Assembly (NCBI GenBank): GCA_963702895.1
Contig: OY969767.1
Span: forward strand, 1,600,001 to 1,664,000
Direction: 5' to 3'
DNA length: 64,000 nucleotides
DNA from: an uncultured Elusimicrobia bacterium
GTDB taxonomy: Bacteria; Elusimicrobiota; Elusimicrobia; 2-01-FULL-59-12
Below are positions 4,215 through 49,876 of the stretch, one piece after another. Every line of letters starts with the position of its first letter. Within the stretch, counting starts at the first letter, position 1. The translations under genes were made by a program, and so were the position numbers. The notes under the pieces were generated by a model, which was not told the origin of the DNA, did not search any database, and worked only from the letters and a program-made list of their open reading frames with translations.

Positions 4215-7200
4215 TCAGGCCGCTGCGCAAAGGAGGGCTGTCGTTCGGCTGTTCCCGCCAGGTCTTGGCTGATGGTCTTGGAAGGAAGGTGGGGGCGTCC
4301 CCGTGGGAGCAGGCGGCGTCATGGCTCGTTGGATGAGGTCCAGGACCGCTTGGCGGTACGCGACGCAAGGCGTAAAGAGATGCCACGTCCACCACATCGC
4401 GCCAAGGCCGATCGCGGCCAATTTCGCACGGAAGGAACGGCGGCCTTTACGATATTGCAGGATCTCAAAAGCAATCCGTACCGGCGTCATCCAGACCACA
4501 CGAAGGGGAATGCCTGGACGGACTCCTTCTTCGAAAAAGTCCAAGACCGCTTGTGCCGTCAAGCGCTCCGGACCTGCATCTTTCCACCAGAAGGAGCTGC
4601 CTCCCGGGAACAGTCGCACCTCGAGGGACTTGGCTTGGTCGATATCCCAGGAGGGAATCTCGGGCAAGATCATCGCGAATAGACTCAAGTAGATGGCTGC
4701 CAGGCCGACCAAGACCTGCCCGGGAACGAAGATGATCAATAGACACAGAAACATCACCGCTTGGATGGAATAACCGAGATAGTTCGCAAACTGCTCATGT
4801 TCTGCTCGATTCCACCCAAGATTAGACCGTGAAGAGCGTCTTTGGACAAATCTCTCCCACACCAGGCCCCAGAGGGCCGCTGACAGGGCGCCGAAGACAG
4901 ATCCCCTGTAGACAGGCGGTTCCCCATGCCTGTCGCGGAGCGCCGGATTGTGGGGCCGCGGCTTGCTTCCCGGCTCAGATGTCTCATCATGATTGAGCCC
5001 TGGGGGTGTATGGGGCAACTGAATGGTAAAGGTTGTTCCGATCGCAGTGCGGCGGTGTTCGCGAAGCCGTGTGTACATAGCCAGAATTCTTCGATGCATA
5101 TCTATATGCTCCGACAAATGGGAAAGCACTTCCTTCGGAGGCTCTCCACCTTTCCACATCATTTGCCATAAATCAGAGGACATCAGCGTGTTGGCGTTCA
5201 GATGAGTGCTCGCATGGCCGAGGCTCGAAATCACGGGAGCTAGTGAAGGAGACGACCCGAAGGGCATTGCCATTCTGGCTATTGCAGGACTCAGGGCAGG
5301 AACCTTTTCCCTAAACTGCCGTATTATCGAGCGTGCCGTGGCAAGATCGTTAGCCTGTAACGCATTGTGCAATTCGTTCAAAACATTTCGAGATGTTTCG
5401 TAGGTCGCGATAATCAGGTCTAACACTTGTCGCGTTTCCGGGACAATCGGAATATCTTCGCTCGGGAAATGGCCGCCTTGCGGCAATTTAATCGAATCAT
5501 ATTCCTCGGCAGACAGAGAATCGACCCCGACGGTCGCGCCCAGACGGTCGGCGGCTTGCCGAACAATCCACAGACCGAGGCCGTGCCGATCACCTTCCGC
5601 GTCAACTCGCAGGGGCATGGCTTCCGGGGAATCGACTGAAAACAGCGCATTGATACGGTCCAGTTTTTCGCGCTCGATGCCCTGCCCGTCATCCATGACA
5701 CGAATCATGATTCCCGAGTCCGGCGGGGAGGCCTCCAGTTCGATAACAATGTGTGACGCATGAGCCTTTCTGGCGTTTTTGATGAGATTCGACAACGCCC
5801 GGTAAAGCGCCGCTTCGTCAAAGGTCGCTCTGGGAAGCGGTGACCGGCTCACCACCTGCACTTTACCTTGATTTGACATCACCTGCCGGGTCCACTGTTC
5901 CAAATCCGCGTCCCGGATGATCATCGGTGATCCGGCTATCACCAACTGTGCCCTGCGAAGGCCGGATAAAAGGCTATTTCCCAAATCGTACGAAAGGCCT
6001 TGCCTGGCGGATGCGATGGAGGAGGCATTGCCTAAGCAAATCCTCTCGATCTCAAGAAGCTGATTTCTTACTCGTGTCCGCAGCTCATCCGCATCACGAC
6101 GCAGGGTTCTCGTGACAGTCGGGTGTCGATACAGTTTCGAGAACGAATTCTCTGTTGCCATCTCAGCATCGACGCGGCCAGCCCATGCCCTGTTGCCCAC
6201 ATCGATGCTCGCGATACGATCACCCATCTCTCTTGCCTGCGTTATAAATTCGTCATCGGCAGATTCGCGTTTCTCAAGCTGCATTGCAAGCAAGGACAAG
6301 TTACCTTTGATGCTTGCAAGTTCATTTCCTAAATCATGAAGCATTTCCCTAAATTCATAGACGTTCAGCAGATCAGCGGAGGGCGACGACGTAGTCCGGG
6401 TCCAGAGATGCTGCAGCCTGTGCCAAAGGAACGCAAACAGAACCCCGAGACCCGCTCCCATGTAGGTCGGCGCTGCGCCGTTGTCGCCCGGTCCACGCGC
6501 GGCGGGGGCGCCGGTCCGGAGGCCTCTCATCACGTTCACGTGGGTGAGGGGACTCATATCGCAGCCGGAACTTATGATGAAAGGACGCTTCCCCATTGAA
6601 TCTGTCAAAGCCGTCACCTTGGCCGCGGCCTGGTTGGAAGGGTCTTCTCCCAACGATTCGAGCTCCTTCGCGCTCAGATTCCCCATCACGATCTTGCCGT
6701 TAGGCCTGCCATCTGGATCCAGGGCCAGTTTGTCATAAGCCTCCGCCATCGAGATGTTTTCCGCAAGGCTGTAGCCCTGAACGTTCATCGCTTGCCAAAA
6801 AGGAAACATGAGTCCCGGCTTGGTTTCGCGCTTGCACGTGTGGATGATGACGGCGGCGCCGGCGGCGTTGATGGTGCCGGCCAGGCGATTCACCGGACCC
6901 ACACAGAACCGCCGCAGACTGCTGGGTTCGCTTGGTTTGTCTTTGGGAAAGAGGGTCGAGAGAAACTCCGATGAGGGGTCGGCAATCACGATCACGTCCG
7001 CCCCAGCCGCCACGAGGGCCTTGGCATAGGCTTCCTGCACGCGGACAGCATAATCCACCAGGGCATCCATCAGGTCGGGGTCACTTTTGGCGAGGGCTGC
7101 GGCGTTGGTTTCTTCCATCACGCGCGCCGCCAATGAGAAGGGACCGATCACATAAGCCACGAGAGGTTTCCGTCGGCCGAAGCCTGTCCTGAGTTTGGCC

Positions 7201-7223
7201 ATGGCCTTCAAAAAGACAGGCAT
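4215..7223 (-). CDS. C-terminal segment: UroD/MtaA-CmuA family domain (second half) fused to HisKA/HATPase histidine kinase and TM segments
   Basis: GPFSLA, AGADVIVIADP, IIHTC, MGNL, IISSGCDM (UroD/MtaA); HDLGNEL, SNLIKNA, DDGQGI, GLGLWIV, GTTFTIQLP (kinase). Confidence 0.8.
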   Translation of the reverse strand: MPVFLKAMAKLRTGFGRRKPLVAYVIGPFSLAARVMEETNAAALAKSDPDLMDALVDYAVRVQEAYAKALVAAGADVIVIADPSSEFLSTLFPKDKPSEPSSLRRFCVGPVNRLAGTINAAGAAVIIHTCKRETKPGLMFPFWQAMNVQGYSLAENISMAEAYDKLALDPDGRPNGKIVMGNLSAKELESLGEDPSNQAAAKVTALTDSMGKRPFIISSGCDMSPLTHVNVMRGLRTGAPAARGPGDNGAAPTYMGAGLGVLFAFLWHRLQHLWTRTTSSPSADLLNVYEFREMLHDLGNELASIKGNLSLLAMQLEKRESADDEFITQAREMGDRIASIDVGNRAWAGRVDAEMATENSFSKLYRHPTVTRTLRRDADELRTRVRNQLLEIERICLGNASSIASARQGLSYDLGNSLLSGLRRAQLVIAGSPMIIRDADLEQWTRQVMSNQGKVQVVSRSPLPRATFDEAALYRALSNLIKNARKAHASHIVIELEASPPDSGIMIRVMDDGQGIEREKLDRINALFSVDSPEAMPLRVDAEGDRHGLGLWIVRQAADRLGATVGVDSLSAEEYDSIKLPQGGHFPSEDIPIVPETRQVLDLIIATYETSRNVLNELHNALQANDLATARSIIRQFREKVPALSPAIARMAMPFGSSPSLAPVISSLGHASTHLNANTLMSSDLWQMMWKGGEPPKEVLSHLSEHIDMHRRILAMYTRLREHRRTAIGTTFTIQLPHTPPGLNHDETSEPGSKPRPHNPALRDRHGEPPVYRGSVFGALSAALWGLVWERFVQRRSSRSNLGWNRAEHEQFANYLGYSIQAVMFLCLLIIFVPGQVLVGLAAIYLSLFAMILPEIPSWDIDQAKSLEVRLFPGGSSFWWKDAGPERLTAQAVLDFFEEGVRPGIPLRVVWMTPVRIAFEILQYRKGRRSFRAKLAAIGLGAMWWTWHLFTPCVAYRQAVLDLIQRAMTPPAPTGTPPPSFQDHQPRPGGNSRTTALLCAAA

Positions 7224-7304
7224 CCGACCGGTCGTCTCTGGAGACGGGACCTGAAGCCCGCGGATCTTCTCAATCCATTCGGACCGTTGGGCATCGCTAG
7301 TAAA

Positions 7305-8654
7305 TCAATCGGGCAAATCTTTGAAGAAATCGAAGCGGGTCTTCAGTTCCGGTACGCCCAGGTCATAAATCCATTCCAGGCTCTCGGGCCGGTGGCCGTT
7401 GGCCAAATAGACCGCTTCCTTCTCCAGAGAAAGGTCCATAGGGGTGTTGGCGGCATCGGTTTGGACATGCGTCGTCGACCAGGCCATCACCTCGGCCATC
7501 AGCTCGGCATCTTGCGTCACCTGTTCACAGGTGTAGTGGGTGCCGTGCTCCCGGTTATAGTGGGATAGCGCGCCCAGCCCCAGGACGGGGACGAAGGCCC
7601 GCCGCTCGGCGAGCGATTGCAGGAGACGCGTTCTTTCCGCTAGACCGGCAGCCAGCGGAAGAGGCGCGGCATTCTGCAACGGCACCGGATGCTGCCGGCC
7701 GCGGCGGCCGTCGGGCGCATGCCGCCCGAGAAATCCCGGTTCATGGCCCACGGCGATGCCGTCAATGGTGAAGTGCCTGCCTGACCATTGCCCCATCTTC
7801 CGCTCCTCGCCCGGTTGCTGCGACCTATGCACACCCGGGCCCATTCCCATGTCGACGTCTCCACCCTTGGCAAGGCGTGCTTGAGAGGCGCTGCTAATTC
7901 TTGTTGAACTTTCCCTCCTTTCCAGCAAGCTCCGATAGTTCTCCGCTATCTGTACTTGTTCATCCAGTTTCGCAAGCCGCCTAGATCGTTCTTTAGGGCT
8001 ATTCCGGTACTCATATTGAAGGCGCTCTCGGATGCGCCGCGCGTTCAGCGGCACACCGCGCAAGTGAAACAGAGCCATCTCTTGATGCCCGAGTCGGCTC
8101 TGGACAAGGCCCAGCAGGATGCGGGCTCTGAGAACTTCTTGAATCCAGTAATAAGTACTGCGGCCGGCAAGTATGAGCGTTTGCTTCAACTCAAGGCTCA
8201 CGGCATTGAGTTCATCGGGGTCATTATTCCTCAGAGCCTGTTCCGCCTGTCGGATGGAATTAACGGCCATGTCATGCACGCCGGCACGCGCGAGATGCCT
8301 CATCACACGATCCAGATTCGCCTGTCTTTCACGAACGGCCGCTGGGATATGACTGTCCGGCCTAAGACCTCTGATGACCCCCTTGAATATTTGTGAGAGG
8401 GCGTCCTGATGAGCGGGATCTGTCGTGAACGCATCAAGCGCAGCAAACACTTGTTCAAACGGCTGACCCGTCCAGTCCGCTATCCGACGGCTGATCACCC
8501 TACGCATAGTTATGCGCTTTGGATTCTCTGGTGAAGCGGACCGTACGGTTGAAGCTTGTTCCCTTCTGGAAGGAGCTTTCGGTGGCATCGCCGCTGCTGG
8601 AGCGATTGGCGCTTCAGAGATGTCCTGGGTTTCCGGGACGTGAGCGGGCCCCAA
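7305..8654 (-). CDS. Middle segment: helical/TPR-like region plus first half of the UroD/MtaA-like domain
   Basis: Long open frame in phase with both neighbours; DAELMAE...PMDLSLEKEA resembles the UroD/MtaA N-terminal half. Confidence 0.6.
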   Translation of the reverse strand: MGPAHVPETQDISEAPIAPAAAMPPKAPSRREQASTVRSASPENPKRITMRRVISRRIADWTGQPFEQVFAALDAFTTDPAHQDALSQIFKGVIRGLRPDSHIPAAVRERQANLDRVMRHLARAGVHDMAVNSIRQAEQALRNNDPDELNAVSLELKQTLILAGRSTYYWIQEVLRARILLGLVQSRLGHQEMALFHLRGVPLNARRIRERLQYEYRNSPKERSRRLAKLDEQVQIAENYRSLLERRESSTRISSASQARLAKGGDVDMGMGPGVHRSQQPGEERKMGQWSGRHFTIDGIAVGHEPGFLGRHAPDGRRGRQHPVPLQNAAPLPLAAGLAERTRLLQSLAERRAFVPVLGLGALSHYNREHGTHYTCEQVTQDAELMAEVMAWSTTHVQTDAANTPMDLSLEKEAVYLANGHRPESLEWIYDLGVPELKTRFDFFKDLPD

Positions 8655-8687
8655 CGATGGGGCGGGTTCGACGGTTTGGCGGCGAAG

Positions 8688-8903
8688 TTACTGAAAACTC
8701 TGACGCATGCGCTGCATGATCGAGTGGCGAGGCGAGAGCAAAAATGGCACAACCGCCTGTTCGGCATAGAGCGAGGAGGCGGTGAGGGACGCTCGAGAAT
8801 CAAGCCGCCCGCCCGCCGCGGAGAATGCCGACGCGGGGACGGAACCCGGCAACAGGCAGGGGATGAGAAGCAGCGCGAAAAGCCTAAGCAGAGGTCTTGG
8901 CAT
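8688..8903 (-). CDS. N-terminal leader segment (signal-peptide-like) of the interrupted giant gene
   Basis: MPRPLLRLFALLLIPCLLPGSVPASA signal-like sequence, in frame with the downstream ORF. Confidence 0.55.
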   Translation of the reverse strand: MPRPLLRLFALLLIPCLLPGSVPASAFSAAGGRLDSRASLTASSLYAEQAVVPFLLSPRHSIMQRMRQSFQ

Positions 8904-9109
8904 GGGTGAACAACCACGGCACGGAACGATTGATACGCTTCCGCGAATACCCGTGAATCGTTGCTTCTATTTTAGGGCACGGTCATCGGAGAAGAAATGG
9001 GCTGGAGGGCTACAAAAAAGGGACTATTTGGCCTAGGCCTAAAGGCCCTCTTGGAGATTAAAAAACCGGGGTATTTCATTAGCAGTTCCGCGAGCGGGCA
9101 AGGCGCTTG

Positions 9110-9228
9110 GGGGTGTTTTGTCGTGCGTAGCCCGCCATAGGGGAAGGGGGACCCGCCCGATGTCTGGCGGGGGGAACCGCGGGATGGTTCCCTTAGAGGG
9201 ACTGGCGGGCGGCACGACAAAACACCCC
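9110..9228. repeat. Nested palindromic (REP-like) element downstream of purB
   Basis: 17-bp perfect IR GGGGTGTTTTGTCGTGC/GCACGACAAAACACCCC enclosing GCCCGCCA/TGGCGGGC and two inner hairpins. Confidence 0.75.
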
Positions 9229-9282
9229 GGGCGCCCTTTTAGAAAGTCGCGAAATCACGAAAGAGATACAAAACGTGGATAT

Positions 9283-10578
9283 TTAGAGACCCAGCCGCTT
9301 GAAGATGTCGCGGACGTGGCGCACGTAATAGGCGGGATCAAAAACCTGGTCAAGCTCCGCTTTGCTCAGCTTCCCTTTGAAGCGGGGGTCTGACGAGACC
9401 AATTGGCGGAAGCTCTCCCCCTCCTGCCACGCTTTCATCGCGTGTTCCTGGACCGTGCGATACGCCTCGTCGCGTCCCACGCCTTTGTCCACGAGCGCAA
9501 GCAAGAGCCGCTGCGAAGCGATCAGTTCGACTGTCTTGAGCATATTGCGCTTCATGTTCTGTGGGTAGACCTGCAGACCGCGCAGGACGTTGTTCAACCG
9601 CACGATCATGAAGTCGAGCAGGATCGTCGAATCCGGCAGGATCACCCGCTCCACCGACGAATGGCTGATATCGCGCTCATGCCAGAGCGCGACATTCTCC
9701 AGGGCCGCCATCGCGTTGCTGCGGACCAGGCGCGCCAAACCGCAGAGATTCTCGCAGGCGATCGGGTTGCGCTTGTGCGGCATCGCGGAGCTCCCCTTCT
9801 GGCCTTTGCTGAAGGGCTCTTCCACCTCCAGGACTTCCGTGCGCTGCAGGTGCCGGATTTCCAGCGCGATCCGTTCAATGCCGGCCGCCACGATGGCCAG
9901 TTCGGCCATGTACTCGGCATGCCGGTCCCGCGGGATGACTTGCGTGGCTGCCGGCTCGGCCTTGAGCCCCAGCTGTTTGCAGATATATTCTTCGATGGAA
10001 GGATCGAGGTGCGCGAAGGTCCCCATCGCCCCGGAGATCGATCCATAGCCCGCGACCTCGCGGGCGCGCCTTAGCCGCTCTTCGGAGCGGCGCAACTCGC
10101 TGTACCAGCCGGCGACCTTGAAACCGAAGGTGATCGGCTCGCCGTGAATGCCGTGCGAACGCCCGATCATGAGCGTTTTCTCGTGCGCCTTGGCGAGTGC
10201 GGCGACCGTCTTCTGCAGTTCGGAAAGATCTTTCAACAGCAGGTCCGCCGCTTCCACCATTTGGACCGCCAGCGCGGTGTCGAGAACGTCCGACGACGTC
10301 AGCCCAAAATGCAGGTACTGCTGGGCTTCGGGACCCACGGTCTCGGCCACCTGGGTCACAAAAGCGATGACGTCGTGCTTGACCTCTTTTTCGATCTCGC
10401 GGATGCGCGGCACATCGATGCGCGCCTTGTCGCGGATCTTCGCCAGCGCGGCGGCCGGGACCTTCTTTTGCTTCACCAGCGCCTCGGTGGAGAGCAGCTC
10501 CACTTCCAGCATCTTTTCAAAGCGGTATTCGTCCGTCCACAGACGGGTCATTTCGGGCCGGGCGTAGCGTTCAATCAT
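9283..10578 (-). CDS. purB: Adenylosuccinate lyase
   Basis: MIERY start; HFGLTSSD, GRSHGIH and GSSAMPHKRNP signature. Confidence 0.97.
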   Translation of the reverse strand: MIERYARPEMTRLWTDEYRFEKMLEVELLSTEALVKQKKVPAAALAKIRDKARIDVPRIREIEKEVKHDVIAFVTQVAETVGPEAQQYLHFGLTSSDVLDTALAVQMVEAADLLLKDLSELQKTVAALAKAHEKTLMIGRSHGIHGEPITFGFKVAGWYSELRRSEERLRRAREVAGYGSISGAMGTFAHLDPSIEEYICKQLGLKAEPAATQVIPRDRHAEYMAELAIVAAGIERIALEIRHLQRTEVLEVEEPFSKGQKGSSAMPHKRNPIACENLCGLARLVRSNAMAALENVALWHERDISHSSVERVILPDSTILLDFMIVRLNNVLRGLQVYPQNMKRNMLKTVELIASQRLLLALVDKGVGRDEAYRTVQEHAMKAWQEGESFRQLVSSDPRFKGKLSKAELDQVFDPAYYVRHVRDIFKRLGL

Positions 10579-10602
10579 TGGATTAACCTCTTCAGTCGAG
10601 TA

Positions 10603-10716
10603 CGTCATTCCGGCGGAAGCCGTCCGCCAGACGTCTGGCGGACTGTCCCTTCCTATGATCTCTAGGGATGGGGACGGAATCTATCATGATAGACCCCGGC
10701 TTTCGCCGGGGTGACA
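10603..10716. repeat. CGTC-type REP dimer with nested insert; left arm of a 79-bp IR around purN
   Basis: CGTCATTCCGGCGGAAGCCG...GAATCTATCATGATAGACCCCGGCTTTCGCCGGGGTGACA. Confidence 0.8.
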
Positions 10717-11316
10717 GCCGATGATCGGCAGATTCTCACAGAACTGTCTAAGGGTTTCTGGATAGAGCTGATGTTCCTGCTCTAAAACTCTCTGCGCGAG
10801 CGTCTCCGCGGTATCGCCGGGGAGGACGGGGACTTTCGCCTGCGCGAGCGTCTTCCCATGATCATACTCCTCATCCACCACATGCACGGTACATCCCGAT
10901 TCTTTCTCCCCCGCGGCGAGCACCGCCTCATGGACAAAATGGCCGTACATTCCGGGCCCGCCAAACTTCGGGAGCAGCGCGGGATGGATGTTGAGGATGC
11001 GGCCTCGAAAACCCCTGACAATCTGGGGCCCCAACTTCCGTAAGTAGCCCGCCAGGCAAATCACATCAGGCGCCGCGGCTTTTAAGCGGGTGAAGACCTC
11101 GGCCTGAAACGCTTCTTCGGTGGCGAAGGCCTTCGGTTCGACGACAGCCGTCGGGACCCCATGTTTGGCTGCCCGCTCCAGAGCGAACACCCCCGGTTTG
11201 CTTGAAAGAACGAGCACGAATTCGAGGAGCGGTATTCTGGCATCCAAGAGCGCCTGCAAGTTGGACCCACTGCCCGACACCAGGACTGCCACACGTACTG
11301 TTCTATTGCCAGACAC
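10684..11316 (-). CDS. purN: Phosphoribosylglycinamide formyltransferase
   Basis: SGSGSNLQA, CLAGY, NIHPALLP, SGCTVH.V. Confidence 0.96.
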   Translation of the reverse strand: MSGNRTVRVAVLVSGSGSNLQALLDARIPLLEFVLVLSSKPGVFALERAAKHGVPTAVVEPKAFATEEAFQAEVFTRLKAAAPDVICLAGYLRKLGPQIVRGFRGRILNIHPALLPKFGGPGMYGHFVHEAVLAAGEKESGCTVHVVDEEYDHGKTLAQAKVPVLPGDTAETLAQRVLEQEHQLYPETLRQFCENLPIIGCHPGESRGLS

Positions 11317-11347
11317 GATTTAACTCTCCCCATGCAAAGTGACAAAT

Positions 11348-11465
11348 CGTCACCCCGGCGCACGCCGGGGTCCAGTCGATGTTCTGGATTCCGTCCCCAT
11401 CCCTAGAGATCATAGGAAGGGACAGTCCGCCAGACGTCTGGCGGACGGCTTTCGCCGGAATGACG
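11348..11465. repeat. CGTC-type REP dimer with nested insert; right arm of the 79-bp IR around purN
   Basis: 11387-11465 is the reverse complement of 10603-10681 with one mismatch. Confidence 0.85.
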
Positions 11466-11485
11466 TTTCACTACAGAGCATTGCA

Positions 11486-12445
11486 CTAACTGAATCGGAT
11501 CCCTTTGGACCCTTCCTCTATGACGCCGATGGGATAAACCGGACGGAGGTGCTCTTCCACGACGGCCACATCCTTGGGTGAGACCACCAGCACCATGCCA
11601 ATGCCCATGTTGAGCGTATTGAACATCTCCTCGTCCGGGATGCCGGCGCGCCGCTGGATCTCATGGAAAAGCTCCGGCACCGGCCAGCTGCGGAGCGTGA
11701 TCCGCGCCTGGACGCCTCGGGGCAGCACGCGCGGGATATTGCCGATGAAGCTCTCGCCCGTGATGTGCGCCATGGCCTTGATGAGCGGCCTCTTGCGCTC
11801 GATGAGTGGCATGAGGGCCTTCACATAAATGCGGGTGGGCTCCAGGAACTCCGCCATCCGGCGCCGGAGCTCAGGCTCCGTATAAAGTTTGCGGACCAAA
11901 GAATAGCCGTTGGAATGAAGGCCCGAGGACGGAAGACCAAGGACCACGTCCCCCGGCCGCACGCTTTTCCCGGTGATCACGCGGGGCTTATCCACCACGC
12001 CCACCGCGAAACCGGCGAGGTCGTATTCGCCTTCGGCATAGAACCCCGGCATCTCCGCGGTTTCCCCGCCCAGAAGAACACAGTTCGATTGCTCACAGCC
12101 GTGGACAATGCCGCGGACCACCTTTTCAGCCCGGTCGACATCGAGCTTGCCGCAGGCAAAGTAATCCAGGAAAAAGAGGGGTTTGGCGCCCGAACAGAGA
12201 AGGTCGTTGACGTTCATCGCGACAAGGTCAAGGCCCACCGTGTCGTGCTTGTCCGCGAGAAACGCCAGCTTGAGCTTGGTGCCCACACCGTCCGTGCAGC
12301 CGACGAGCTGCGGGCTCTTCATGCCTTTGGCTGGAAACGGAAAGAGCCCGGCAAAGCCACCGATCAAGGGGGACATCTTTTTGATGCGTTCAACGAGCGC
12401 GTCACCCGCCTCGACATCCACGCCCGCTTTTTTATAGGTGATCAT
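11486..12445 (-). CDS. purM: Phosphoribosylformylglycinamidine cyclo-ligase (AIR synthetase)
   Basis: TYKKAGVD, TDGVGTK, GGETAEMPG, SSGLHSNGYSLVRK. Confidence 0.96.
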   Translation of the reverse strand: MITYKKAGVDVEAGDALVERIKKMSPLIGGFAGLFPFPAKGMKSPQLVGCTDGVGTKLKLAFLADKHDTVGLDLVAMNVNDLLCSGAKPLFFLDYFACGKLDVDRAEKVVRGIVHGCEQSNCVLLGGETAEMPGFYAEGEYDLAGFAVGVVDKPRVITGKSVRPGDVVLGLPSSGLHSNGYSLVRKLYTEPELRRRMAEFLEPTRIYVKALMPLIERKRPLIKAMAHITGESFIGNIPRVLPRGVQARITLRSWPVPELFHEIQRRAGIPDEEMFNTLNMGIGMVLVVSPKDVAVVEEHLRPVYPIGVIEEGSKGIRFS

Positions 12446-13041
12446 GCTTTCTTCGCCGGTTCGGGCCGGCTGCCCGGTTTGACCAGCAGGAGCCCTTCCT
12501 TGCACAGGGGACAGTTGTCCGGCGCGTACGTGACCAGGGGCAACCGCAAAAGAACATGTTTCGGCGCTGAGAAGCGGGCGTCCGATTCCCCCCGCTCAGC
12601 TAAAGCCGCATAGCCTGCCACGTGAGCGCCGGCGTTTTCCACGAGTCTCGCCACTTCACGGACCGAACCGCCGGTGGTGATCACGTCTTCGGCCACGATG
12701 ACCTCTTCTCCGGGAGCAAGCGCGAAACCCCGCCGCAGGACGAATTGGCCATCGACCCGCTCCGCGAAAATGGCCCTCGCGCCGAGGGCGCGGCCAATCA
12801 CGTACCCCATCACAATACCGCCAATGGCGGGTGTGACAACGGCTGTCACGGGCTTGTCGATGGAGACGGCCTTGATTTTTCGCGCGAGCGCCGCTCCCAG
12901 CCGGTCCGCGTCACAGCCGTGCTGAAGAAGAAGCGCGCATTGCAAATAGCTGTCCGAGTGAAGGCCGCTCGTGAGCTTGAAATGACCCTGCAAGAGCGCT
13001 CCGCGCTCCTTGAACATCTTGAGCACATCTTCTTGTTTCAT
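12442..13041 (-). CDS. pyrE: Orotate phosphoribosyltransferase
   Basis: GHFKLTSGLHS..Y, VAEDVITTGGS PRPP-binding motif. Confidence 0.95.
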   Translation of the reverse strand: MKQEDVLKMFKERGALLQGHFKLTSGLHSDSYLQCALLLQHGCDADRLGAALARKIKAVSIDKPVTAVVTPAIGGIVMGYVIGRALGARAIFAERVDGQFVLRRGFALAPGEEVIVAEDVITTGGSVREVARLVENAGAHVAGYAALAERGESDARFSAPKHVLLRLPLVTYAPDNCPLCKEGLLLVKPGSRPEPAKKA

Positions 13042-14650: not shown

Positions 14651-14653
14651 GAT

Positions 14654-15493: not shown

Positions 15494-15597
15494 GGGGTCA
15501 AACCCTGCGCACGCCGACGGTCCCCAGCGCGGCCCCGACGGGCTCTTTGAGCGCAAGCGGCTCCCGTGATGTGGATGGTTCAGACATCAAATTCGTG

Positions 15598-39466: not shown

Positions 39467-39490
39467 GTAATTTTTGTCAAACCCGTTACA

Positions 39491-39519
39491 TATATACCAA
39501 CGCCCCAGTCGAGTGTCAA
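39491..39519 (-). promoter_or_regulatory. Putative sigma70 promoter for the M23/bactofilin genes
   Basis: TTGACA-17nt-TATATA with TG extension on the minus strand. Confidence 0.45.
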
Positions 39520-39656
39520 GGGGAAAAAACTCATTTAAAAATTGATTCAAAAGGCCCTTTTTGATTGAATGGCTACCCACCTTCGGCACGGCTCGCCCGA
39601 ATGGCGAGCCGCTTTGCCGATGGCCATCGCAACCATAACAAGAAAGGAAGGCGAAG

Positions 39657-42452: not shown

Positions 42453-43148
42453 GTGAATCGTTTACGACCCATCAAGATATCACGACGCTACTTGAAGTAT
42501 CCCGAAGGTTCCTGCCTCATCCAGATGGGCCATACGAAAGTGCTTTGCACGGCGAGCATCTCCCGAGACCTCCCCGATCACGCCAAGGCACAAAACAAAG
42601 GCTGGCTGAGCGCGGAGTATTCCATGCTGCCGCGCGCGACCGCGGAACGCACCGCGCGCGGCAAGATCGCCTCGGGCGGCCGCGCCAAGGAAATCTCCCG
42701 ATTGATCGGTCGTTCCCTGCGGGCCGTGATGGATTTGAGTGTCATCCCGGACCTCGGCATTCTCATTGACTGTGATGTCATCCAAGCCGATGGCGGCACT
42801 CGAACAGCCGCCATCAATGGGGGTTTCATCGCCGTCGTGGAGGCGCTCCGGCACTGGCGCAAAGAAAACAAAGCCATGCAATGGCCCATTCGCGACGCGG
42901 TGGGGGCCGTGAGCGTCGGCCTCATCGAAGGCCAGTGTGTCCTGGATCTGGATTATGAAAAGGACGTCCGCGCCGATGTCGACTTGAATGTCGTCATGAC
43001 GGGCTCCGGTCATTACGTGGAAATCCAAGGGAGCGCCGAACATAAGCCCTTTGATCAAAACGACCTCCAGAGGATGCTCGCGCTCGCCAAGACAGGCATC
43101 CGAACGATTCTCGCGCTTCAGCAGAAGGCCCTGGGAAGACTCTCGTGA
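42453..43148 (+). CDS. rph: Ribonuclease PH
   Basis: GWLSAEYSMLPRAT, EISRLIGRSLR, DCDVIQADGGTR, DLDY..D, EIQG. Confidence 0.96.
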   Translation: MNRLRPIKISRRYLKYPEGSCLIQMGHTKVLCTASISRDLPDHAKAQNKGWLSAEYSMLPRATAERTARGKIASGGRAKEISRLIGRSLRAVMDLSVIPDLGILIDCDVIQADGGTRTAAINGGFIAVVEALRHWRKENKAMQWPIRDAVGAVSVGLIEGQCVLDLDYEKDVRADVDLNVVMTGSGHYVEIQGSAEHKPFDQNDLQRMLALAKTGIRTILALQQKALGRLS

Positions 43149-43822
43149 TGAGCGATCTCCCCCCCTTCGACCCCTTCCGCGTGGTCCTCGCCACGCGCAA
43201 CCCGCACAAAATCAAAGAGATCATGGCCATCTTTCATGACACCCCGATTGAATTTTTGACCCTCGACCACTTTCCGGCGGCCCCGGAAGTGGTGGAGGAT
43301 GGACAATCTCTCGAAGAAAATGCCCGAAAGAAGGCCTATGAAGTCGCGAAGTTCACCAAGCACATCGCGCTCGCCGATGATTCGGGACTGGAAGTCAACT
43401 TTCTCGATGGGATGCCAGGCGTCTTTTCCGCTCGCTTTGCGGGCCCCAACTGCAGCTTTGCCGACAACAACAACAAGCTCCTCAAGCTCATGCGGGGCGT
43501 TCCCACGGAGCACCGCCGCGCGCGCTTTCGCTGCATGATCGCTCTGGCTGTTCCGAAAGGAGCCACCCAGACCGTGGAAGGTATCTTGGACGGCTTCATC
43601 ACGGACCGTCCGCGTGGCGAAGAAGGCTTTGGCTATGATCCCGTGTTTCTTGTCCCCGATCAAGGAAAGACCCTTTCCGAGATGGGCCCGACTCTTAAAA
43701 ACAGCCTGAGCCACCGTTATAAGGCCCTGCAGGCCATGCGCCCGATCCTGCTCAAACTCCGCGAGAACATCCTCTCCTACAAAGACAAGCCGCTGCCTGG
43801 CACCCCGACTGAAATCATCTAG
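43148..43822 (+). CDS. rdgB: Non-canonical purine NTP pyrophosphatase (RdgB/HAM1)
   Basis: ATRNPHK, ADDSGLEV, PGVFSAR, GFGYDPVF, SHR. Confidence 0.95.
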   Translation: MSDLPPFDPFRVVLATRNPHKIKEIMAIFHDTPIEFLTLDHFPAAPEVVEDGQSLEENARKKAYEVAKFTKHIALADDSGLEVNFLDGMPGVFSARFAGPNCSFADNNNKLLKLMRGVPTEHRRARFRCMIALAVPKGATQTVEGILDGFITDRPRGEEGFGYDPVFLVPDQGKTLSEMGPTLKNSLSHRYKALQAMRPILLKLRENILSYKDKPLPGTPTEII

Positions 43823-44023
43823 TCGCCTGAGAACTCCCGTCGTCAGATTCAGAAATCAAACACACATTTTGAAGTCGGGGCCCGTCGGCCGAATCGGTTG
43901 ATCCGTCTATTGGTTTGGGTTTCCAGACAGGGATTTAGGATGTGAGATTGTCGCAGGTGCGAGCGGTTCTTGGGAGGGTCCTGCAAGGTCTTCAACTCTG
44001 GCCAGAAGGAGTGTCCGGGCCGA

Positions 44024-44806
44024 TTACCGTAGGCGCAGGTACATCGGTTCGCTCATGGGGCTTTCATGATTTTCTGCATCCAGGCTGGTCACAGCCAGCC
44101 AGACGTCCTGGATATCGGTCGCCGGGCTCCAGACAAAATGAGCATTCACGATTGGATTTTCTGTTTCCAAAACCGAATCCACCATCAAGTCCGTGGAGGA
44201 ACTGTACAGGCGGTACCGATAAGAAGATCCCACCGAATCCCAACTCAGTTCGACCATGGTCGGAGAATCAATACGGGCGGCCAGGTTTTCGGGTATCGGT
44301 ATCAGCTCTTCGGCGGAAACGGGTGTTTCGACCGGTCGTGCGAGGGGCGGCTCGGACACGGCTTGGGGATTGGCCACCGGTAAACGGAGGGGTCTGTTTT
44401 GTGTGGAAACCACCTGTTTTGGAACCTCCGATGGGGCGGTGAGCATCTTTTTTTGGGGGGCAGCGCGAGGGGAGGGCTCCAAGGACGCACCGGTCGGAGG
44501 CCGGCGCAGTTCGACGGAGAGCAACTTCAGTGCTAGAACCATGCCTGCGGCCACCATCATGAAGCTACCGACCCAAAACAATGCGTTCGATAGAATGGAG
44601 CGCATGTCGTCCGGTCCGGAGATGTTTTCATCCCATTGGAACGGCACAGGAGTGGCGGGAATCTTGGGTGTGAGGCGCTGGAGCCGGAGTGATTCCGAGA
44701 TCTTGATCGCCGACGGGGAAGGACGTGGAAGGACTTTTTCGGCCTCTGAGGTGACCTCAGGCAAAGTGTCAATCGGCGGTGTTTGGGTGGATGGAGCCAC
44801 GACCAT
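44024..44806 (-). CDS. Single-pass membrane protein with Pro-rich linker and C-terminal FN3-like domain
   Basis: TM LFWVGSFMMVAAGMVLAL; PENLAA...VELSWD...YRLY...AVTSLD..NHESPMS. Confidence 0.6.
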   Translation of the reverse strand: MVVAPSTQTPPIDTLPEVTSEAEKVLPRPSPSAIKISESLRLQRLTPKIPATPVPFQWDENISGPDDMRSILSNALFWVGSFMMVAAGMVLALKLLSVELRRPPTGASLEPSPRAAPQKKMLTAPSEVPKQVVSTQNRPLRLPVANPQAVSEPPLARPVETPVSAEELIPIPENLAARIDSPTMVELSWDSVGSSYRYRLYSSSTDLMVDSVLETENPIVNAHFVWSPATDIQDVWLAVTSLDAENHESPMSEPMYLRLR

Positions 44807-44928
44807 GCCTCCTCAGTACGACGCGACAACACGGGTATTTTAGCTCTTTTTCAGACGATTTGATGAGGAATATTAGTGGCCGCCATGTTCCGCGGGCGAA
44901 GGGGTTCCCTAGAACCGAAGAGTCCGGG

Positions 44929-46800
44929 CTATGCAGACGTGCGCAGGCGGCGCGGACGATTAGAAAGTGGGACTTGCCCGCGGAGCCGCTCCAGCCAGCG
45001 CAGCACACTTTGGAAATTGTCCGCCGGGGGAAGTCGGCTGGCCTCGTAATATTCCGTGGGATATCCGCCTTGAGCGCTGTACACCTTAAAATCCGCCGGT
45101 AGCTCGCGGAGCCATGCCGGGGGGATGCGCAATCGTCTGGCCGTCTCGGTTTTGGAGACGTAACCAACAGGCCGTTTGGGTGGAAGATGGGCGGCGAGCG
45201 TGGCTTCCAATTCCACCGCAAGATACTGATGACGAATTCGGCCGTACTGCTCTGTTTGGACCGGCAAGCCCAATCGGTTCGCCACGGCGTGCACCTGGCG
45301 GCGGTGGTAACCGTATTTCTCGGCCAGCGCGCGCAGTGAAATCCGGCGACGATCCGGGTGAAAACGGTGCCGCAGCGCGGCCAGCTCTTCCGGTAAAACC
45401 ACAAAATAAGGACGCCAGGAAAATCCGATCATCCGCGGCGCGACGCGGCCGTCATCCAGAAGATCCCGCAAGGTTTCGTAGTTGATCCCGATCGCAGCGG
45501 CCAGCTCACCTTGGGAAATGGCATGGGGGACCCGCTGGGGGCAAAAGATCTCCCGAAGCACCGGCACCCAGTCCGCCAGGAAAAAAGAATCGGTCCGTTG
45601 CCCGCGGGGAACAGGAAAATACGGCATATCTCCGGACTTTATCAGCTTCGAAATTTCGTCCGTCGTCATCTGCAGCGCTTGGGCCAATTCTCCGATGGTC
45701 AACAGGTCCCTTCGAGGATAAGGCAACGGGGAACGAACTTGCTGGACCGGTGACATTTTGAGTTGACGTTGGAAATGGCGAAGGTCCTTCGGGGACGCCA
45801 CGTAATAGGGCTGGCCGGCAGGACCAATTTGTTCCGGCTGGATGATCTTCCAGGCTATGGCAAAGGCGATGAAGCGCTCCTTTCGGCCCAGCTTGGCGGC
45901 GAGCTCTTCCAGACGGTAGGCGTGCGGCACGCGCTCGGGAGCAAACCGGCGGAGGATCGCCGGCAGGTCCGACCTGAGGAAATACGGGAGGCCCCGCACG
46001 TCCTCGTGGCTCCAAAGCGTTTCGACCGGCCGGAGCGCGCCCGCCTCCACCAGATCGCGAACAACGTAAAGAGACTTTCCGAGAAACTTCGCCAGCTCTG
46101 CGATGCCCACCACCTGATCGGCGGGCGTCTGGAGAACAAACTTGCGCCGCGCGGCCACCGCGGTCTCCCAGAAGAAGAAATCCTCGCTGTATCCCTGAGA
46201 CTGGCGCAAATCGGGGACAACAACCCCTCCCCGGATCGCCTCGTCCACCATCGCCAAATCCTGAAGATCCAGCACAACCCGCAATTCATTGATGGTGACT
46301 AAGGGCTTCAGCGCCACCCGCCGAGCCAAGGTCGCGTAATTAGCAGGATAGCGTATCCAGACCGTTCCCTCGGGCGCCGGTCGAGGGACATCCGTGACCA
46401 ATTCCACAATAGTCTTGTTCTGATCCAGTGCATAGGAAGCCACCAGAAAGGGATCGACCTTGGGCACCGAGGAAGGGCTGGTTGCCGATCGCGCGGCCGC
46501 GCGGCCCGCGCGCGGCCGGCGTTTCTGTGAACGATCGTTGGCTGTATCTCGAATCAGAGCCGGGCCTAGAGTGAAGAGCTGACGTCGCGATGGCCGGGCC
46601 ACGTCGGAACCGTTGTGCCGCATGCCGCGGCTTCCGTCATCCAGGAACGGATGCCGGCTGGACCAGAGGGACGGCAGTTGGAACGCCTCCGAAGCGAGAC
46701 TCGCGCAGGAAAAAGCCTGTGCCCCACCCAAGCGGGCGTCTTTCGGCGCAAGCGGACGGGGAAGAAGGGCAACGGACAGGAGAACGGCCGTCCAGCGCAT
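44929..46800 (-). CDS. Leader-bearing protein with about seven tandem excisionase/MerR-like HTH domains
   Basis: Repeats such as VGIAELAKFLG, YRLEELAAKLG, LTIGELAQALQ, ISQGELAAAIG, ISLRALAEKYG, VSKTETARRL. Confidence 0.75.
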   Translation of the reverse strand: MRWTAVLLSVALLPRPLAPKDARLGGAQAFSCASLASEAFQLPSLWSSRHPFLDDGSRGMRHNGSDVARPSRRQLFTLGPALIRDTANDRSQKRRPRAGRAAARSATSPSSVPKVDPFLVASYALDQNKTIVELVTDVPRPAPEGTVWIRYPANYATLARRVALKPLVTINELRVVLDLQDLAMVDEAIRGGVVVPDLRQSQGYSEDFFFWETAVAARRKFVLQTPADQVVGIAELAKFLGKSLYVVRDLVEAGALRPVETLWSHEDVRGLPYFLRSDLPAILRRFAPERVPHAYRLEELAAKLGRKERFIAFAIAWKIIQPEQIGPAGQPYYVASPKDLRHFQRQLKMSPVQQVRSPLPYPRRDLLTIGELAQALQMTTDEISKLIKSGDMPYFPVPRGQRTDSFFLADWVPVLREIFCPQRVPHAISQGELAAAIGINYETLRDLLDDGRVAPRMIGFSWRPYFVVLPEELAALRHRFHPDRRRISLRALAEKYGYHRRQVHAVANRLGLPVQTEQYGRIRHQYLAVELEATLAAHLPPKRPVGYVSKTETARRLRIPPAWLRELPADFKVYSAQGGYPTEYYEASRLPPADNFQSVLRWLERLRGQVPLSNRPRRLRTSA

Positions 46801-47141
46801 GGTTGAGATTAACTGATTCCCGACAACGCATAAAGAGGCCGAAAAGCTATAAAATCGGGACTCGTCGACCCATGGTTCTCGTGGGTCTATCGCCAAGACG
46901 GATGTCTCGGCACCCGTTTCAAGGGGCGAATCAATGGCTGCTAATACCAGCCATTGATCTCCTATTTTGGTTAGAGCAGCGGGCGAAGGCTGCGGGTTTG
47001 CTTTCTGTTTCCAACATTCAAATCCTACGCGATCTCGCTTCCCAAAATCTCACCGGCTGAGACTGATCGATTGGCATGTTGTTCTGGTCCGATAGAATCT
47101 AGTACCCTATCATTCGCTTCTTCGTGAGCCAATCCTTTCGT

Positions 47142-47219
47142 GGTGGCTATAGCTCAATTGGTTAGAGCGCTGCCCTGTGGCGGCAGAGGTTGCGGGTTCA
47201 AGTCCCGTTAGCCACCCCA
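47142..47219 (+). tRNA. tRNA-His(GTG), with G-1 and encoded CCA
   Basis: G-GTGGCTA acceptor; anticodon arm CTGCC-CTGTGGC-GGCAG; C73 discriminator. Confidence 0.97.
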
Positions 47220-47243
47220 TCGCTCGCCAGACGTCTGGCGAGC

Positions 47244-47312
47244 GACCTCAAACCTCACATCGAGCACCTCAAATCTTAAAGATTTGCTATGTTCGTTTTG
47301 AGGTTTGAGGTG
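47244..47312. repeat. Heptamer (ACCTCAA) imperfect hairpin at the end of the four-helix-bundle gene
   Basis: ACCTCAAACCTCACA...ACCTCAAAT / TTTGAGGTTTGAGGT. Confidence 0.65.
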
Positions 47313-47671
47313 CCGTTCGAATTCCGCTTGGCCGTTAGAACCGACTGAGACAAAATGGCGACAAATTCTCCGGCTTCCTGGATCAGACCTGATAGGTCCT
47401 CGGAGACCTGAAACTCTGCCGCGCGGACGAGCTCCAACCAGTAACGCGCCTCCCTTGCCTCTTTCAGTGCAAGCTGCAACTTGTGTAGGAAATCTGCCCG
47501 ACTTTCGGCGGCCCTGGCTTCTTGCAGATGAGCGCCGACAGAGGTTCCGCTTCGAAATAGCTGGTCTCCGAGATGTGCACCGACTTTATTCGCCGGCAAC
47601 TGCGCCATCAACTTCAACATTGCCGCCCCAAACGCTAAATACCGCTCATCAAACTGTTTGTTCCGGTGCAT
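47276..47671 (-). CDS. Four-helix-bundle protein (23S rRNA IVS / Avd-like family)
   Basis: DQLFRSGTSVGA...EA..AESRADFLHKL..ALKEARE..YWLEL. Confidence 0.92.
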   Translation of the reverse strand: MHRNKQFDERYLAFGAAMLKLMAQLPANKVGAHLGDQLFRSGTSVGAHLQEARAAESRADFLHKLQLALKEAREARYWLELVRAAEFQVSEDLSGLIQEAGEFVAILSQSVLTAKRNSNGTSNLKTNIANL

Positions 47672-47800
47672 GAATATGCCTCCTTGGATGAATGGCCCTA
47701 CATCCCTTAGATGCGCGAACCGGAAGAATATTCACGGTGGAACTAGAATTTATACGTAAAGAAAAGAGTGTGTCCTGCCCGTCAGCCGCAAGACCGATAG

Positions 47801-47987
47801 CCTGATCCGGTACGAAGCCACCCTTTTGCGCCAGTTCTACCGGGCCATACACGAACTGGAGCGGCTCCCCGCCACGACATCCCGGCGGGTCCGCCGACGC
47901 CTCAGTGGCGGACAGAGCTCGCGGCGCGGGGTGGCCGTGCCGCCGCCGGTCGCGGTTGACGTAGAGGTTACGTCATCAATCCCCTGA
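47801..47987 (+). pseudogene. Orphan C-terminal gene fragment with an in-frame twin-hairpin insertion
   Basis: LIRYEATLLRQFYRAIHELERL[45 nt, 47868-47912]QSSRRGVAVPPPVAVDVEV; no start codon or N-terminal part. Confidence 0.45.
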
Positions 47988-48268
47988 AAATGGGTTTGTT
48001 TCGCAAAAATGATTGGGCAAATGACGATCTTCGAATTAATAGACTTATTGAAAGTTTCGCGTCTCACTCACGTTACTTCAGGCCATTAAGAAGGGCGGAA
48101 GCTCCCGATCGATGTTTCTGGCGATCAGGGCTTCCAAAGAACTCTCTCTATTTGACTTCTCCTGGACCTATGTCTCCGTGCCATCGGGCCCATGACCTCC
48201 GGACGCTCAATTTGGGCCTTCAGTTACGCAACCCTTTACTCTATACTTATTGTTGACGCGACCTTCTT

Positions 48269-49876
48269 ATGATTCACTTCAAGCGCATCCTCGCGATGCC
48301 ACTAAGCGTGGTGTTGGTATTCCCAGACGTTTCGTCTGCGTGTTCTCGAATCGCTCACAAGAATGAGGTTTCGACAATCGAATCGCTTTTATTCGATCGT
48401 GTGGCTCTCGCCCATCGGGCCGAGTGGGTTCACGTGAATGGTCGTAAACGGCACGAGCCACAAGAACTGCGCGACCTTGCTCGGAAGATTGTTTCTCCGC
48501 AAGTGTTCAATGCACCGCAGTTGCTCTTTGCGGATGCAAGCGAGCATGACAGCCGAGCGCCGTTAAGAGCCGATACCGTCTCTTGGCCGCTGAATGATAT
48601 TCGTCTGGTAATAGACAGAATTAATCAACGAATAGCGGACCTTTTTCCCAAAGGCGATCCGTTGCAAAGACTACGTGAGCGATTGCCCACAATCGGTCAT
48701 CCCATTTACAGGATTGCTGACAGGTCCTTTCTCCTTCACGACATGGCCGTCGCACAAGTTGTTCAAGGACATTTGGGTCCGCTCGGCGAAAGTCCATTAG
48801 TGGGGCTTTATATTGGATCCGGCGGAGATGCCGTTCACTACTATTGGTCTACGAACGCACTCAAGAACCGCTCTTCATTCACCCGGTTCGTTGATATCAA
48901 GTACCGCAACATCACATATGACGATCTTCAAGCAGCCCTATCTGATCCACAAAGATTTATCAAGGAACATCTGAGATTGCGAGATTACCGTGACTTTAAA
49001 CAAGAGAACGGATTCGCGCGGCAAGAGCATCTCGAGAACTTCTACGGTGATACCCCTGGTTTAGGACGTCCGGACCGCCTTTCGATCCTGGCGGCCCTGC
49101 TTCTTGAACTCGAGACAATCGGAATTGATCTAAGAACGATTCAGCCTCTGCGCTTGAACGGCCGCGTGACACTAAGCTGGGGTTCAAATACCGATAAATC
49201 CGCTCACATTCTTCAATTATGGGGTGAAGACATTTCTAAGCTCGAAGACATTCCACCTTATGATGTCTGTTATCAACGCGCCGTCTATGGGCTTTCTAAT
49301 GGTTATGTCAAGGGTGATGAAAGCTATATGCAACGGGTTGTAGATGCATTACCTCCGCACGGGCTACTGGTAACTGATGACTATGCCCTTTCGACAAACA
49401 TCTCCCAAGGTTACATCGACAATGCCGCACACTTCCCCAACGTCCGGCATGGTCGTCCTCTCTCGGTCATTGAAACACCCCAAACGCGGGCTGCTGAAAC
49501 GTTGGTGTTGAACGCGAAGAACAGAATCTCGGATGACCCGCTGCGGAAATATGGTTGGCACGTCCGTGTCCGTGCACGTATCGCTGCCGATGCAGGCAAT
49601 GAAGGCCATGGCGGCTCCGCATTCCTGCAATTCGAGCTGCCTCCAGAGACTGGACCATGGCTCCCGGGGATAATTAGTGCTCGGAATCTAGTATGGTTCA
49701 CAGTTGCCAGTGCGATCGCACTCTGGGCTGGACCCAGCCAGTTAGCATTTGGGATTTGGGCAATCGCCCTTACGATAACCTTATATGAAACCGCCGTCAG
49801 ATTCGGTGTAGGCGCACCGCAGTCCCGCGAGCCAAAGGGCTCGACAAACCTGGTCGCACTTCGCAGTTCAGCGTAG
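48269..49876 (+). CDS. Leader-bearing hypothetical protein, possible SAM-dependent methyltransferase-like domain, C-terminal TM pair
   Basis: 535-aa ORF; VGLYIGSGGD...FVD resembles class I MTase motifs I/II; ends VALRSSA. Confidence 0.65.
   Translation: MIHFKRILAMPLSVVLVFPDVSSACSRIAHKNEVSTIESLLFDRVALAHRAEWVHVNGRKRHEPQELRDLARKIVSPQVFNAPQLLFADASEHDSRAPLRADTVSWPLNDIRLVIDRINQRIADLFPKGDPLQRLRERLPTIGHPIYRIADRSFLLHDMAVAQVVQGHLGPLGESPLVGLYIGSGGDAVHYYWSTNALKNRSSFTRFVDIKYRNITYDDLQAALSDPQRFIKEHLRLRDYRDFKQENGFARQEHLENFYGDTPGLGRPDRLSILAALLLELETIGIDLRTIQPLRLNGRVTLSWGSNTDKSAHILQLWGEDISKLEDIPPYDVCYQRAVYGLSNGYVKGDESYMQRVVDALPPHGLLVTDDYALSTNISQGYIDNAAHFPNVRHGRPLSVIETPQTRAAETLVLNAKNRISDDPLRKYGWHVRVRARIAADAGNEGHGGSAFLQFELPPETGPWLPGIISARNLVWFTVASAIALWAGPSQLAFGIWAIALTITLYETAVRFGVGAPQSREPKGSTNLVALRSSA

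Follow-up and report, generated by a model that had tools for sequence, protein, structure and literature searches.

The closest described systems to the one treated here are the giant proteins of Omnitrophota and Elusimicrobiota, the PEXEL/plasmepsin V export of Plasmodium and the polymorphic toxins of bacteria. We analysed a stretch of 64,000 nucleotides from an uncultured Elusimicrobia bacterium (assembly GCA_963702895.1, contig OY969767.1, positions 1,600,001 to 1,664,000), called the window below. Three of its genes, A, B and C, encode unrelated cargo proteins framed by similar ends: a signal-peptide-like leader with a short motif behind it, and a basic tail closing on alanine. We tentatively regard them as small members of a family of exported cargo proteins in one Elusimicrobiota family. 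The shared leader, the shared tail and a co-distributed candidate enzyme point to an undescribed protein export route.

Published accounts of giant proteins deal with the types of cargo, with signal peptides and membrane segments, and with secretion genes nearby (PMC12057145; PMC10066038; 10.1101/2025.01.14.632903; PMC11573180; 10.1101/2023.11.21.568195; 10.64898/2026.06.07.730766). No description of a conserved post-signal motif, a C-terminal motif or a stand-alone partner was found in the literature covered, with preprint supplements and most subscription papers outside its scope; in the main text of 10.64898/2026.06.07.730766, as available, the word 'motif' occurs 0 times. The proteins described here resemble the giants in combining a signal peptide and membrane segments with unrelated enzyme domains of cytoplasmic type, such as methyltransferase, HATPase, GNAT and sugar enzymes (10.1101/2023.11.21.568195; 10.64898/2026.06.07.730766; PMC11573180), and the largest members adjoin a Tad locus. 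They differ in that members with the short leader start at about 300 amino acids and carry no TIKI-fold head. With 535, 623 and 1562 codons in genes C, B and A, and a maximum of 3,506 amino acids in the source genome, they stay below the limit of >5,000 amino acids used for giants.

The consensus of the PEXEL motif is RxLxE/Q/D. PEXEL export has the same logic of a hydrophobic targeting stretch, a short downstream motif, a dedicated protease in the first export compartment and unrelated cargoes (PMC10653839), and here too the unrelated cargoes have a short motif that follows their targeting stretch at a fixed distance. The likeness is an analogy only, as there is no homology, the motif here is F-x-x-[QE]-A-L, the candidate enzyme has a TIKI fold and is not an aspartic protease, and there is an additional C-terminal tail. 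Polymorphic toxins, for example those with the PVC metallopeptidase, likewise place a constant N-terminal module, sometimes a peptidase, on variable cargoes (PMC3482391), but the cargoes here are metabolic or regulatory and not recognised toxin tips, and the constant C-terminal tail is again extra. By analogy, the family thus resembles both PEXEL/plasmepsin V and peptidase-headed polymorphic toxins in its logic without belonging to either.

Leader and tail of the family

The genome set consisted of the source genome (G000; one 2.72-Mb contig, 98% complete, positions given as C1), 10 Elusimicrobiota genomes of the same family and 30 genomes of other families. Genes of G000 were called by a crude longest-ORF (open reading frame) rule, which gave 2148 genes. 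The leader profile matched 7-35 copies each in 9 of the 10 same-family genomes, and outside the family one weak match each in 3 of the 30 genomes.

The leader reads M-x-K-x-L-x-R, a hydrophobic core, D-P, A-x-A, a variable spacer and F-x-x-[QE]-A-[LIVF]. Its arginine is present in 92% and its proline in 90% of cases, and alanine-rich positions follow. This is the anatomy of a signal peptide, with a basic n-region, a hydrophobic h-region, a helix breaker and small residues at -3 and -1; A-x-A lies within 8 amino acids of the proline in 131 of 228 leaders. The distance from the proline to the phenylalanine of the motif has a median of 24 (interquartile range 23-27). The first-pass annotation had quoted longer strings as the post-signal motif of the three window genes; a shared motif is real, but its conserved part is F-x-x-[QE]-A-[LIVF]. 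A lipobox, [LVI][ASTVI][GAS]C, occurs in 26 of 228 leaders, and the common cysteine follows the proline, lies in the middle of the h-region and is not invariant, so the Sec/SPII lipoprotein reading was rejected.

The first-pass annotation had proposed that leader and tail co-occur, and this holds far above chance. In G000, all 12 intact short-leader genes end in hydrophobic-x-x-[AS]-A, against 12 among the 2120 other genes (two of these 12 are genes B and C), a count that is partly circular as 11 of the 12 were seeds picked with the tail in view. A held-out sample was drawn from the relatives: the 137 listed matches outside G000, minus one contig-edge fragment, gave 121 regions, of which the best 80 were taken (50 further leader matches exist beyond the listed 137). 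These 80 regions hold 93 leaders, 67 of them in stop-closed ORFs, and 62 of these ORFs have at least 200 amino acids. An end in [AS]A is found in 50 of the 62, compared with 6 of 104 other closed ORFs at the same loci. All nine genomes contribute to the sample, the full tail pattern is present in 34 of 62, and in 59 of 62 the last two residues are drawn from A, S and G. A library of 1.84 billion proteins gave 469 leader-profile matches at E<=0.001. Among the best 150 of these, some of them identical to the genome matches, 11 are the source genome's own, [AS]A closes 38 of the 47 others with at least 300 amino acids, and it closes 3 of 92 proteins below 300 amino acids, which look like contig fragments. 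The lineage-specific modular family with signals at both ends that had been suspected is therefore real and large in held-out genomes.

The tail consists of a basic stretch and hydrophobic-x-x-[AQS]-A, with a net charge of +2.4 in the preceding stretch versus +0.6. Its codons vary freely and all three stop codons are used; we therefore consider it a protein motif and reject a DNA element. The first-pass annotation had likened the ends to the ssrA/ClpX degron. The short-leader tails do share the terminal AA (39 of 62) and a hydrophobic residue at -5 with the transfer-messenger RNA (tmRNA) degron of ClpXP and Prc/Tsp (PMC9382460), but R, A, G or T mostly replaces L at position -3, a basic stretch stands upstream and related families have Q-A ends. 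LAA is present in 1 of 62 tails, and the tails do not follow the tmRNA tag of their lineage: 11 of 11 tags end in LALAA or YALAA, whereas Q occupies position -2 in 11 of 21 tails from other families. This weakens the degron reading, and since Q-A tails coexist with LAA tags, and LAA is so rare, the tail seems to be a signal of its own and not a copy of ssrA. It might still be readable by ClpX or Prc.

Shared ends could also be relics of duplication and recombination, in which one ancestral gene supplied a 5' module together with its upstream DNA as well as a 3' module; these would have picked up passengers and would carry no dedicated targeting information; the stand-alone protein discussed below would then be merely another family gene lost in genome G007. 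Copying of 5' ends is suggested by a CG-rich, partly palindromic element directly 5' of the start codon in 23 of 81 leader genes of the relatives versus 17 of 919 other genes; moreover, broken members exist (gene A and the frameshifted leader at C1:1409024) and the cargoes are mostly orphans. Such a history fits poorly with a tail conserved at the protein level under free codons, in two leader classes and at least four families, with a motif and spacing kept over a variable spacer sequence, and with the removal of cysteines from captured domains. We consider it improbable.

Examples of the CG-rich element stand at C1:391118, 1099321, 1417356 and 2351901 and at loci L048-L127; it is not evident before genes A, B and C. 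Shine-Dalgarno-like words are rare 5' of leader genes (3 of 81, versus 258 of 919 other genes). At C1:1409024-1416426 (L012) a frameshift close to a C homopolymer separates the leader of a family gene from its body, which is an assembly error or phase variation. A multi-copy ORF of about 416 amino acids, probably an insertion sequence transposase, ends in LEVAA and often flanks family genes (C1:91743, 808009, 848349, 1400608, 1731903); it was left out of the leader/tail counts above.

Cargo domains and cysteine content

The cargoes include methyltransferases, HATPases, GNATs, sigma-70 region 4, helix-turn-helix (HTH) domains, DnaJ, sugar kinases and epimerases, and 32 of the 47 library proteins have no Pfam match. 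Catalytic motifs are kept in the TIM, Clp ATPase, NAD synthetase and DnaJ cargoes. In the 22 family genes of G000, cysteine makes up 98 of 58,266 residues (0.17%), about five-fold below other genes; the corresponding values are 0.88% for the remaining long genes and 0.82% for the remaining soluble proteins with a signal. When homologous domains are aligned, the family has 12 cysteines where the counterparts have 38, with 2 of the 14 alignment rows duplicated. By a simple hydropathy rule, no membrane segment is predicted behind the leader in 16 of the 102 complete members; these include HATPase and S-adenosylmethionine (SAM)-dependent methyltransferase cargoes. Signal-peptide anatomy and cysteine depletion together make export of the short-leader proteins likely.

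Internal repeats of the leader motif were considered as cut sites of a polyprotein and rejected: F-x-x-[QE]-A-[LIFVM] occurs 4 times in 138 cargoes, compared with 13.7 +/- 4.1 in 20 local shuffles. Of 220 members, 9 show a twin-arginine-like second signal behind the leader motif, compared with 13 of 1515 deeper windows; examples are located at window 46573-46590 (minus strand) and in P0045, P0042, P0083, P0101, P0145, P0156 and P0159. Such signals are either left over from captured genes or serve a second step of export. TatC was not found in G000 and is present in 8 of 10 relatives.

TIKI-fold heads on giant proteins

In five large genes of G000 the signal peptide is followed by a domain, named IQDLH, in place of the short motif, and four of the five end in [AS]A. 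The 12,887- and 6,672-amino-acid giants of this genome have the same type of tail. Of the 41 genomes, 22 have the head domain; they comprise the same 9 of the 10 relatives and, beyond the family, genomes of families f2, f4, f6 and f11. Named relatives of the domain are mostly labelled Elusimicrobiota. Headed proteins of other families have 0.18% cysteine; A is the last residue in 15 of their 21 complete sequences, and position -2 is Q in 11 of the 21. The motif F-x-x-[QE]-x-[LIV] stands at the junction behind the head in 13 of 23 other-family proteins versus 24 of 2274 background windows, a count made post hoc that reflects one inherited trait.

A Tad locus (secretin, TadA, TadB/C) and then about 75 kb of giant genes occupy C1:715000-808000; the giants have 4068, 12887, 3012, 1529 and 1725 amino acids and most are tailed. 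The 4068-amino-acid protein (C1:730476-742682, L006) ends in FGATA, belongs to neither leader class and is possibly a third N-terminal type. Separate large signal-bearing proteins with a KKTGKVVVIK-like C-terminal end were found at C1:2189054-2232109 and 2328273-2337197, and a PorV-like gene and FlgD-Ig proteins near C1:725000; this suggests a second, type IX-like tail system.

The leader could instead be an uncleaved signal anchor, so that the cargoes would be membrane-tethered regulators and enzymes facing their own cytoplasm and the tail a ClpXP degron. The cargo functions are cytoplasmic, the two terminal residues of the tail and its hydrophobic -5 resemble those of the tmRNA tag, and a cytoplasm-facing topology has been proposed for many Omnitrophota giants (10.64898/2026.06.07.730766). 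Nevertheless, the five-fold loss of cysteine and the A-x-A site would remain without explanation, a single anchor with its N-terminus inside would put the next domain outside, and a ClpXP degron sits badly with LAA in just 1 of 62 tails. In the second class, moreover, the signal peptide leads into a domain that also occurs stand-alone with a signal. A signal anchor is, on this evidence, quite improbable.

Stand-alone TIKI-fold protein

The head domain also occurs on its own in G000, as two tailless proteins that both start with a signal peptide, at C1:272088 and C1:2368884-2369897. The latter encodes 331 amino acids and is 34% identical to its paralogue. It is single-copy and 59-80% identical in exactly the ten genomes with short leaders (G000 and 9 of the 10 relatives) and was not found in the other 31 (G007 and the 30 of other families).

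The head domain has no sequence match in PDB, Pfam or NCBIfam. The fold assignment rests on the model of C1:272088, to which C1:2368884 is linked by the 34% identity; that model has a predicted local distance difference test (pLDDT) score of 86 and a parallel beta-sheet core. In the VIA ranking of the C1:272088 model, ChaN, BcR136, EreC, HopBA1 and BcR135 are the top five (Z 9.1-7.8, with the first four at 8.8-9.1), and RRSP and PMT follow at ranks 7 and 9, with Z down to 6.2. Foldseek pointed weakly in the same direction. The conserved stand-alone protein has D57, H59, E89 and H292 invariant in 89 sequences, within the motifs D-x-H, E and GG-F-H, and 60 of 64 domains have both D-x-H and GG[FY]H. 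Mapped by motif order, the 2His/2Glu site of RRSP has the same residue order (PMC6254334). The stand-alone protein shares with the TIKI/EreA/ChaN superfamily (ChaN 2G5G, BcR135/136 2RAD/2QGM, EreC 6XCQ, HopBA1 5T09, RRSP 5W6L) the fold and the order acidic-x-His, Glu, His, and differs by an Asp at the first acidic position and a helical insert. Going by the modelled fold and the two histidines and two acidic residues, it would be placed in this superfamily.

Genome G007 (95% complete) groups inside the family, its ValS being 74-77% identical, with modest tree support. The stand-alone gene is absent from its slot, in mid-contig and between flanking genes that are kept. No short leaders, no TIKI heads or TIKI-headed giants, no Tad ATPase beside giants and no TatC were found in this genome.

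The tail-to-tail neighbour of the stand-alone gene, in most relatives as well, encodes a signal-bearing protein of 625 amino acids without a Pfam match (C1:2366605-2368482), and G007 has retained it. Signal-bearing stand-alone relatives of about 500-550 amino acids (P0307-P0313), one of them labelled Omnitrophica, were also seen, and Omnitrophota may have a short-leader class of their own.

Genes A, B and C in the window

The features of the window are as follows.

4215..8903, minus strand: gene A, a leader-bearing cargo gene of 1562 codons when read through, with two in-frame stops; it contains an MtaA/URO-D-like domain, a histidine-kinase-like region with HATPase_c, hydrophobic segments and a tail
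8823..8903, minus strand: signal-peptide-like region of gene A with basic n-region, hydrophobic core and A-x-A (sequence and profile match)
8751..8768, minus strand: post-signal motif YAEQAV of gene A (family consensus F-x-x-[QE]-A-L)
8688..8690, minus strand: in-frame TAA of gene A, after codon 71; no public contig spans the site
7305..7307, minus strand: in-frame TGA of gene A, codon 533; no public contig spans the site
6522..7238, minus strand: MtaA/CmuA or URO-D-like domain of gene A, below the curated cut-offs for the named enzymes
5517..5819, minus strand: HATPase_c domain of gene A (E=2e-16)
4215..4232, minus strand: tail LCAAA and stop of gene A (tail rank 14/2148)
44929..46800, minus strand: gene B, with divergent leader, HTH/excisionase-like array and tail LRTSA; 0 predicted membrane segments after the leader
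46681..46698, minus strand: motif LASEAF of gene B
44929..44946, minus strand: tail LRTSA and stop of gene B (tail rank 7/2148)
48269..49876, plus strand: gene C, a probable divergent member with orphan cargo, a hydrophobic segment near the end and tail LRSSA
48392..48409, plus strand: motif FDRVAL of gene C
49859..49876, plus strand: tail LRSSA and stop of gene C (tail rank 12/2148)
4014..4085, minus strand: tRNA-Val just downstream of gene A, a neighbour outside the system
47143..47219, plus strand: tRNA-His between genes B and C, a neighbour outside the system

The three motifs and three ends that the first-pass annotation had quoted were all recovered. Its view of the reading frame starting at 8903 as one gene has to be given up: because the TAA at 8688-8690 and the TGA at 7305-7307 are in frame, the leader and the tail of gene A fall into separate ORFs. 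Judged from the sequence, gene A as assembled is a pseudogene or an assembly error; both stops lie outside the coverage of two public runs. Its leader matches the profile of the 11 other G000 leaders, from which gene A was excluded, with E=2e-6. The domains that had been suggested for genes A and B stood up in the Pfam/NCBIfam scan, with URO-D/MtaA-like and HATPase_c domains in the distal ORF of gene A and HTH_17 in gene B. The MtaA-like region has no homologue in the 10 same-family genomes.

Neither gene B nor gene C scored with the hidden Markov model (HMM) built from 232 leaders of relatives. The leader of gene B was missed by both HMMs, yet it ranks 23 among 2148 genes with the position-specific scoring matrix (PSSM). 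As the homologue of gene B in the relative G003 has a canonical leader and a canonical tail, we count gene B as a family member. Gene C fails the first block of the leader PSSM and has only a weak leader match; its membership is based on FDRVAL, the rank of its tail, the terminal hydrophobic segment and a single cysteine. No homologue of gene C was found in the 10 same-family genomes or in a protein search scoring 8000 candidates, and it is a probable member only. The methyltransferase label once given to it is a lead only, from Atlas rows at 0.84-0.85, and there is no Pfam or NCBIfam match.

Nearby tRNA genes had been noted as a shared trait. This is true of genes A, B and C but not general, as 1 of 19 other members lies within 1.5 kb of a tRNA gene (0.56 expected), and such an association was rejected. 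No repeats around the three genes could be tied to the system; a perfect 17-bp inverted repeat with an 85-nt spacer is located between purB and gene A (window 9110-9228). A trigger factor-ClpP-ClpX-Lon cluster in the usual housekeeping arrangement (window 54032-59621) lies 4 kb from gene C, and G000 has a single ClpX gene.

Proposed export route

The mechanism that we propose has three steps. The signal peptide would very probably thread the unfolded chain through Sec, after which signal peptidase I would remove the signal. The F-x-x-[QE]-A-L motif would then lie near the new N-terminus, and we lean towards a functional link in which the stand-alone TIKI/EreA/ChaN-fold hydrolase engages it in the periplasm, acting in trans as the fused TIKI-fold head would act in cis on the giants of the same cells. 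That this candidate hydrolase (C1:2368884-2369897) actually cleaves the motif is possible but doubtful. Finally, the tail common to both classes could serve as a handle for further threading of the cysteine-poor cargo, a step we suggest with reserve. The cargo would end up where ATP, SAM, NAD and DNA are available, in the simplest case in a host or prey cell, either in its cytoplasm or in its membrane. Taken as a whole, Sec export, motif engagement and tail-dependent delivery beyond the periplasm, perhaps into a partner cell, form a reading that we hold only provisionally. The first-pass annotation had suggested delivery into other cells or engagement by an unfoldase, and both are still conjectural.

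A more specific version, modelled by analogy on plasmepsin V, seems rather unlikely. In it a TIKI-fold protease would license the F-x-x-[QE]-A-L site, and the tail would thread enzymes and DNA-binding arrays into another cell. The same version, at the same low strength, would count dozens of cysteine-free cargoes as delivered, some with a second signal peptide for use in the target cell.

Several results speak against the proposed mechanism. Gene A is broken. No regex match to the P-loop of adenylate kinase or the histidine of PPDK was found in the cargoes. A profile-profile alignment with hhalign lends no support to a common origin of the leader motif and the junction behind the TIKI heads, its score of 5.9 lying within the shuffled range. 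The fold scores are modest (Foldseek best E=0.009, VIA root mean square deviation 3.6-6.4), and the superfamily includes non-peptidases such as ChaN, esterases and the inactive PMT C2. The co-loss in G007 is one event and the presence in ten genomes one clade; since the Tad ATPase and TatC are also gone, G007 has perhaps dropped a whole lifestyle. A Tad ATPase lies beside giants in 8 of 9 leader-bearing relatives, but not in G007, and no secretion ATPase tracks the family class-wide: the Tad ATPase occurs in giant-free families and was not found in the giant-rich f6 and f11, and a GspE-like ATPase (C1:1916939) has no close orthologue in the family. Their distribution thus does not support either ATPase as a class-wide machine.

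Lastly, membrane segments are predicted in 86 of the 102 complete members, a result compatible with a membrane anchor in the producing cell itself. The proteins may accordingly be exported by Sec and kept by that cell as multi-domain proteins of its periplasm or surface, fixed there through hydrophobic hairpins, with the motif as a folding or docking element and the tail as a turnover signal for Prc/CtpA, or for ClpXP if export fails. Cysteine depletion suits any oxidising location, the genome has one CtpA-like and one ClpX gene, and the AA ends of 39 of 62 tails are like its own tmRNA tag. Both periplasmic proteins and ssrA tags are targets of Prc (PMC9382460), and the giants of sister lineages are read as surface or membrane proteins (10.1101/2023.11.21.568195; 10.64898/2026.06.07.730766). 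On the other hand, the intact ATP-, SAM-, NAD- and DNA-dependent domains have no obvious periplasmic substrate, other exported proteins of G000 are not cysteine-poor, and related families have Q-A tails although their tmRNA tags are unchanged. Both this placement of the proteins and these roles for motif and tail are conceivable, and we think them unlikely rather than likely.

How the giants of Elusimicrobiota and Omnitrophota are trafficked and what they do is a question still to be answered, and proteins of this size cannot practically be handled. Because the family described here offers two short transplantable signals, natural members of 300-600 amino acids, a candidate processing enzyme of 331 amino acids and a natural lineage of loss, the question becomes testable with reporters and purified protein. 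If delivery beyond the producing cell is true, the family would represent a new bacterial effector route with PEXEL-like logic.

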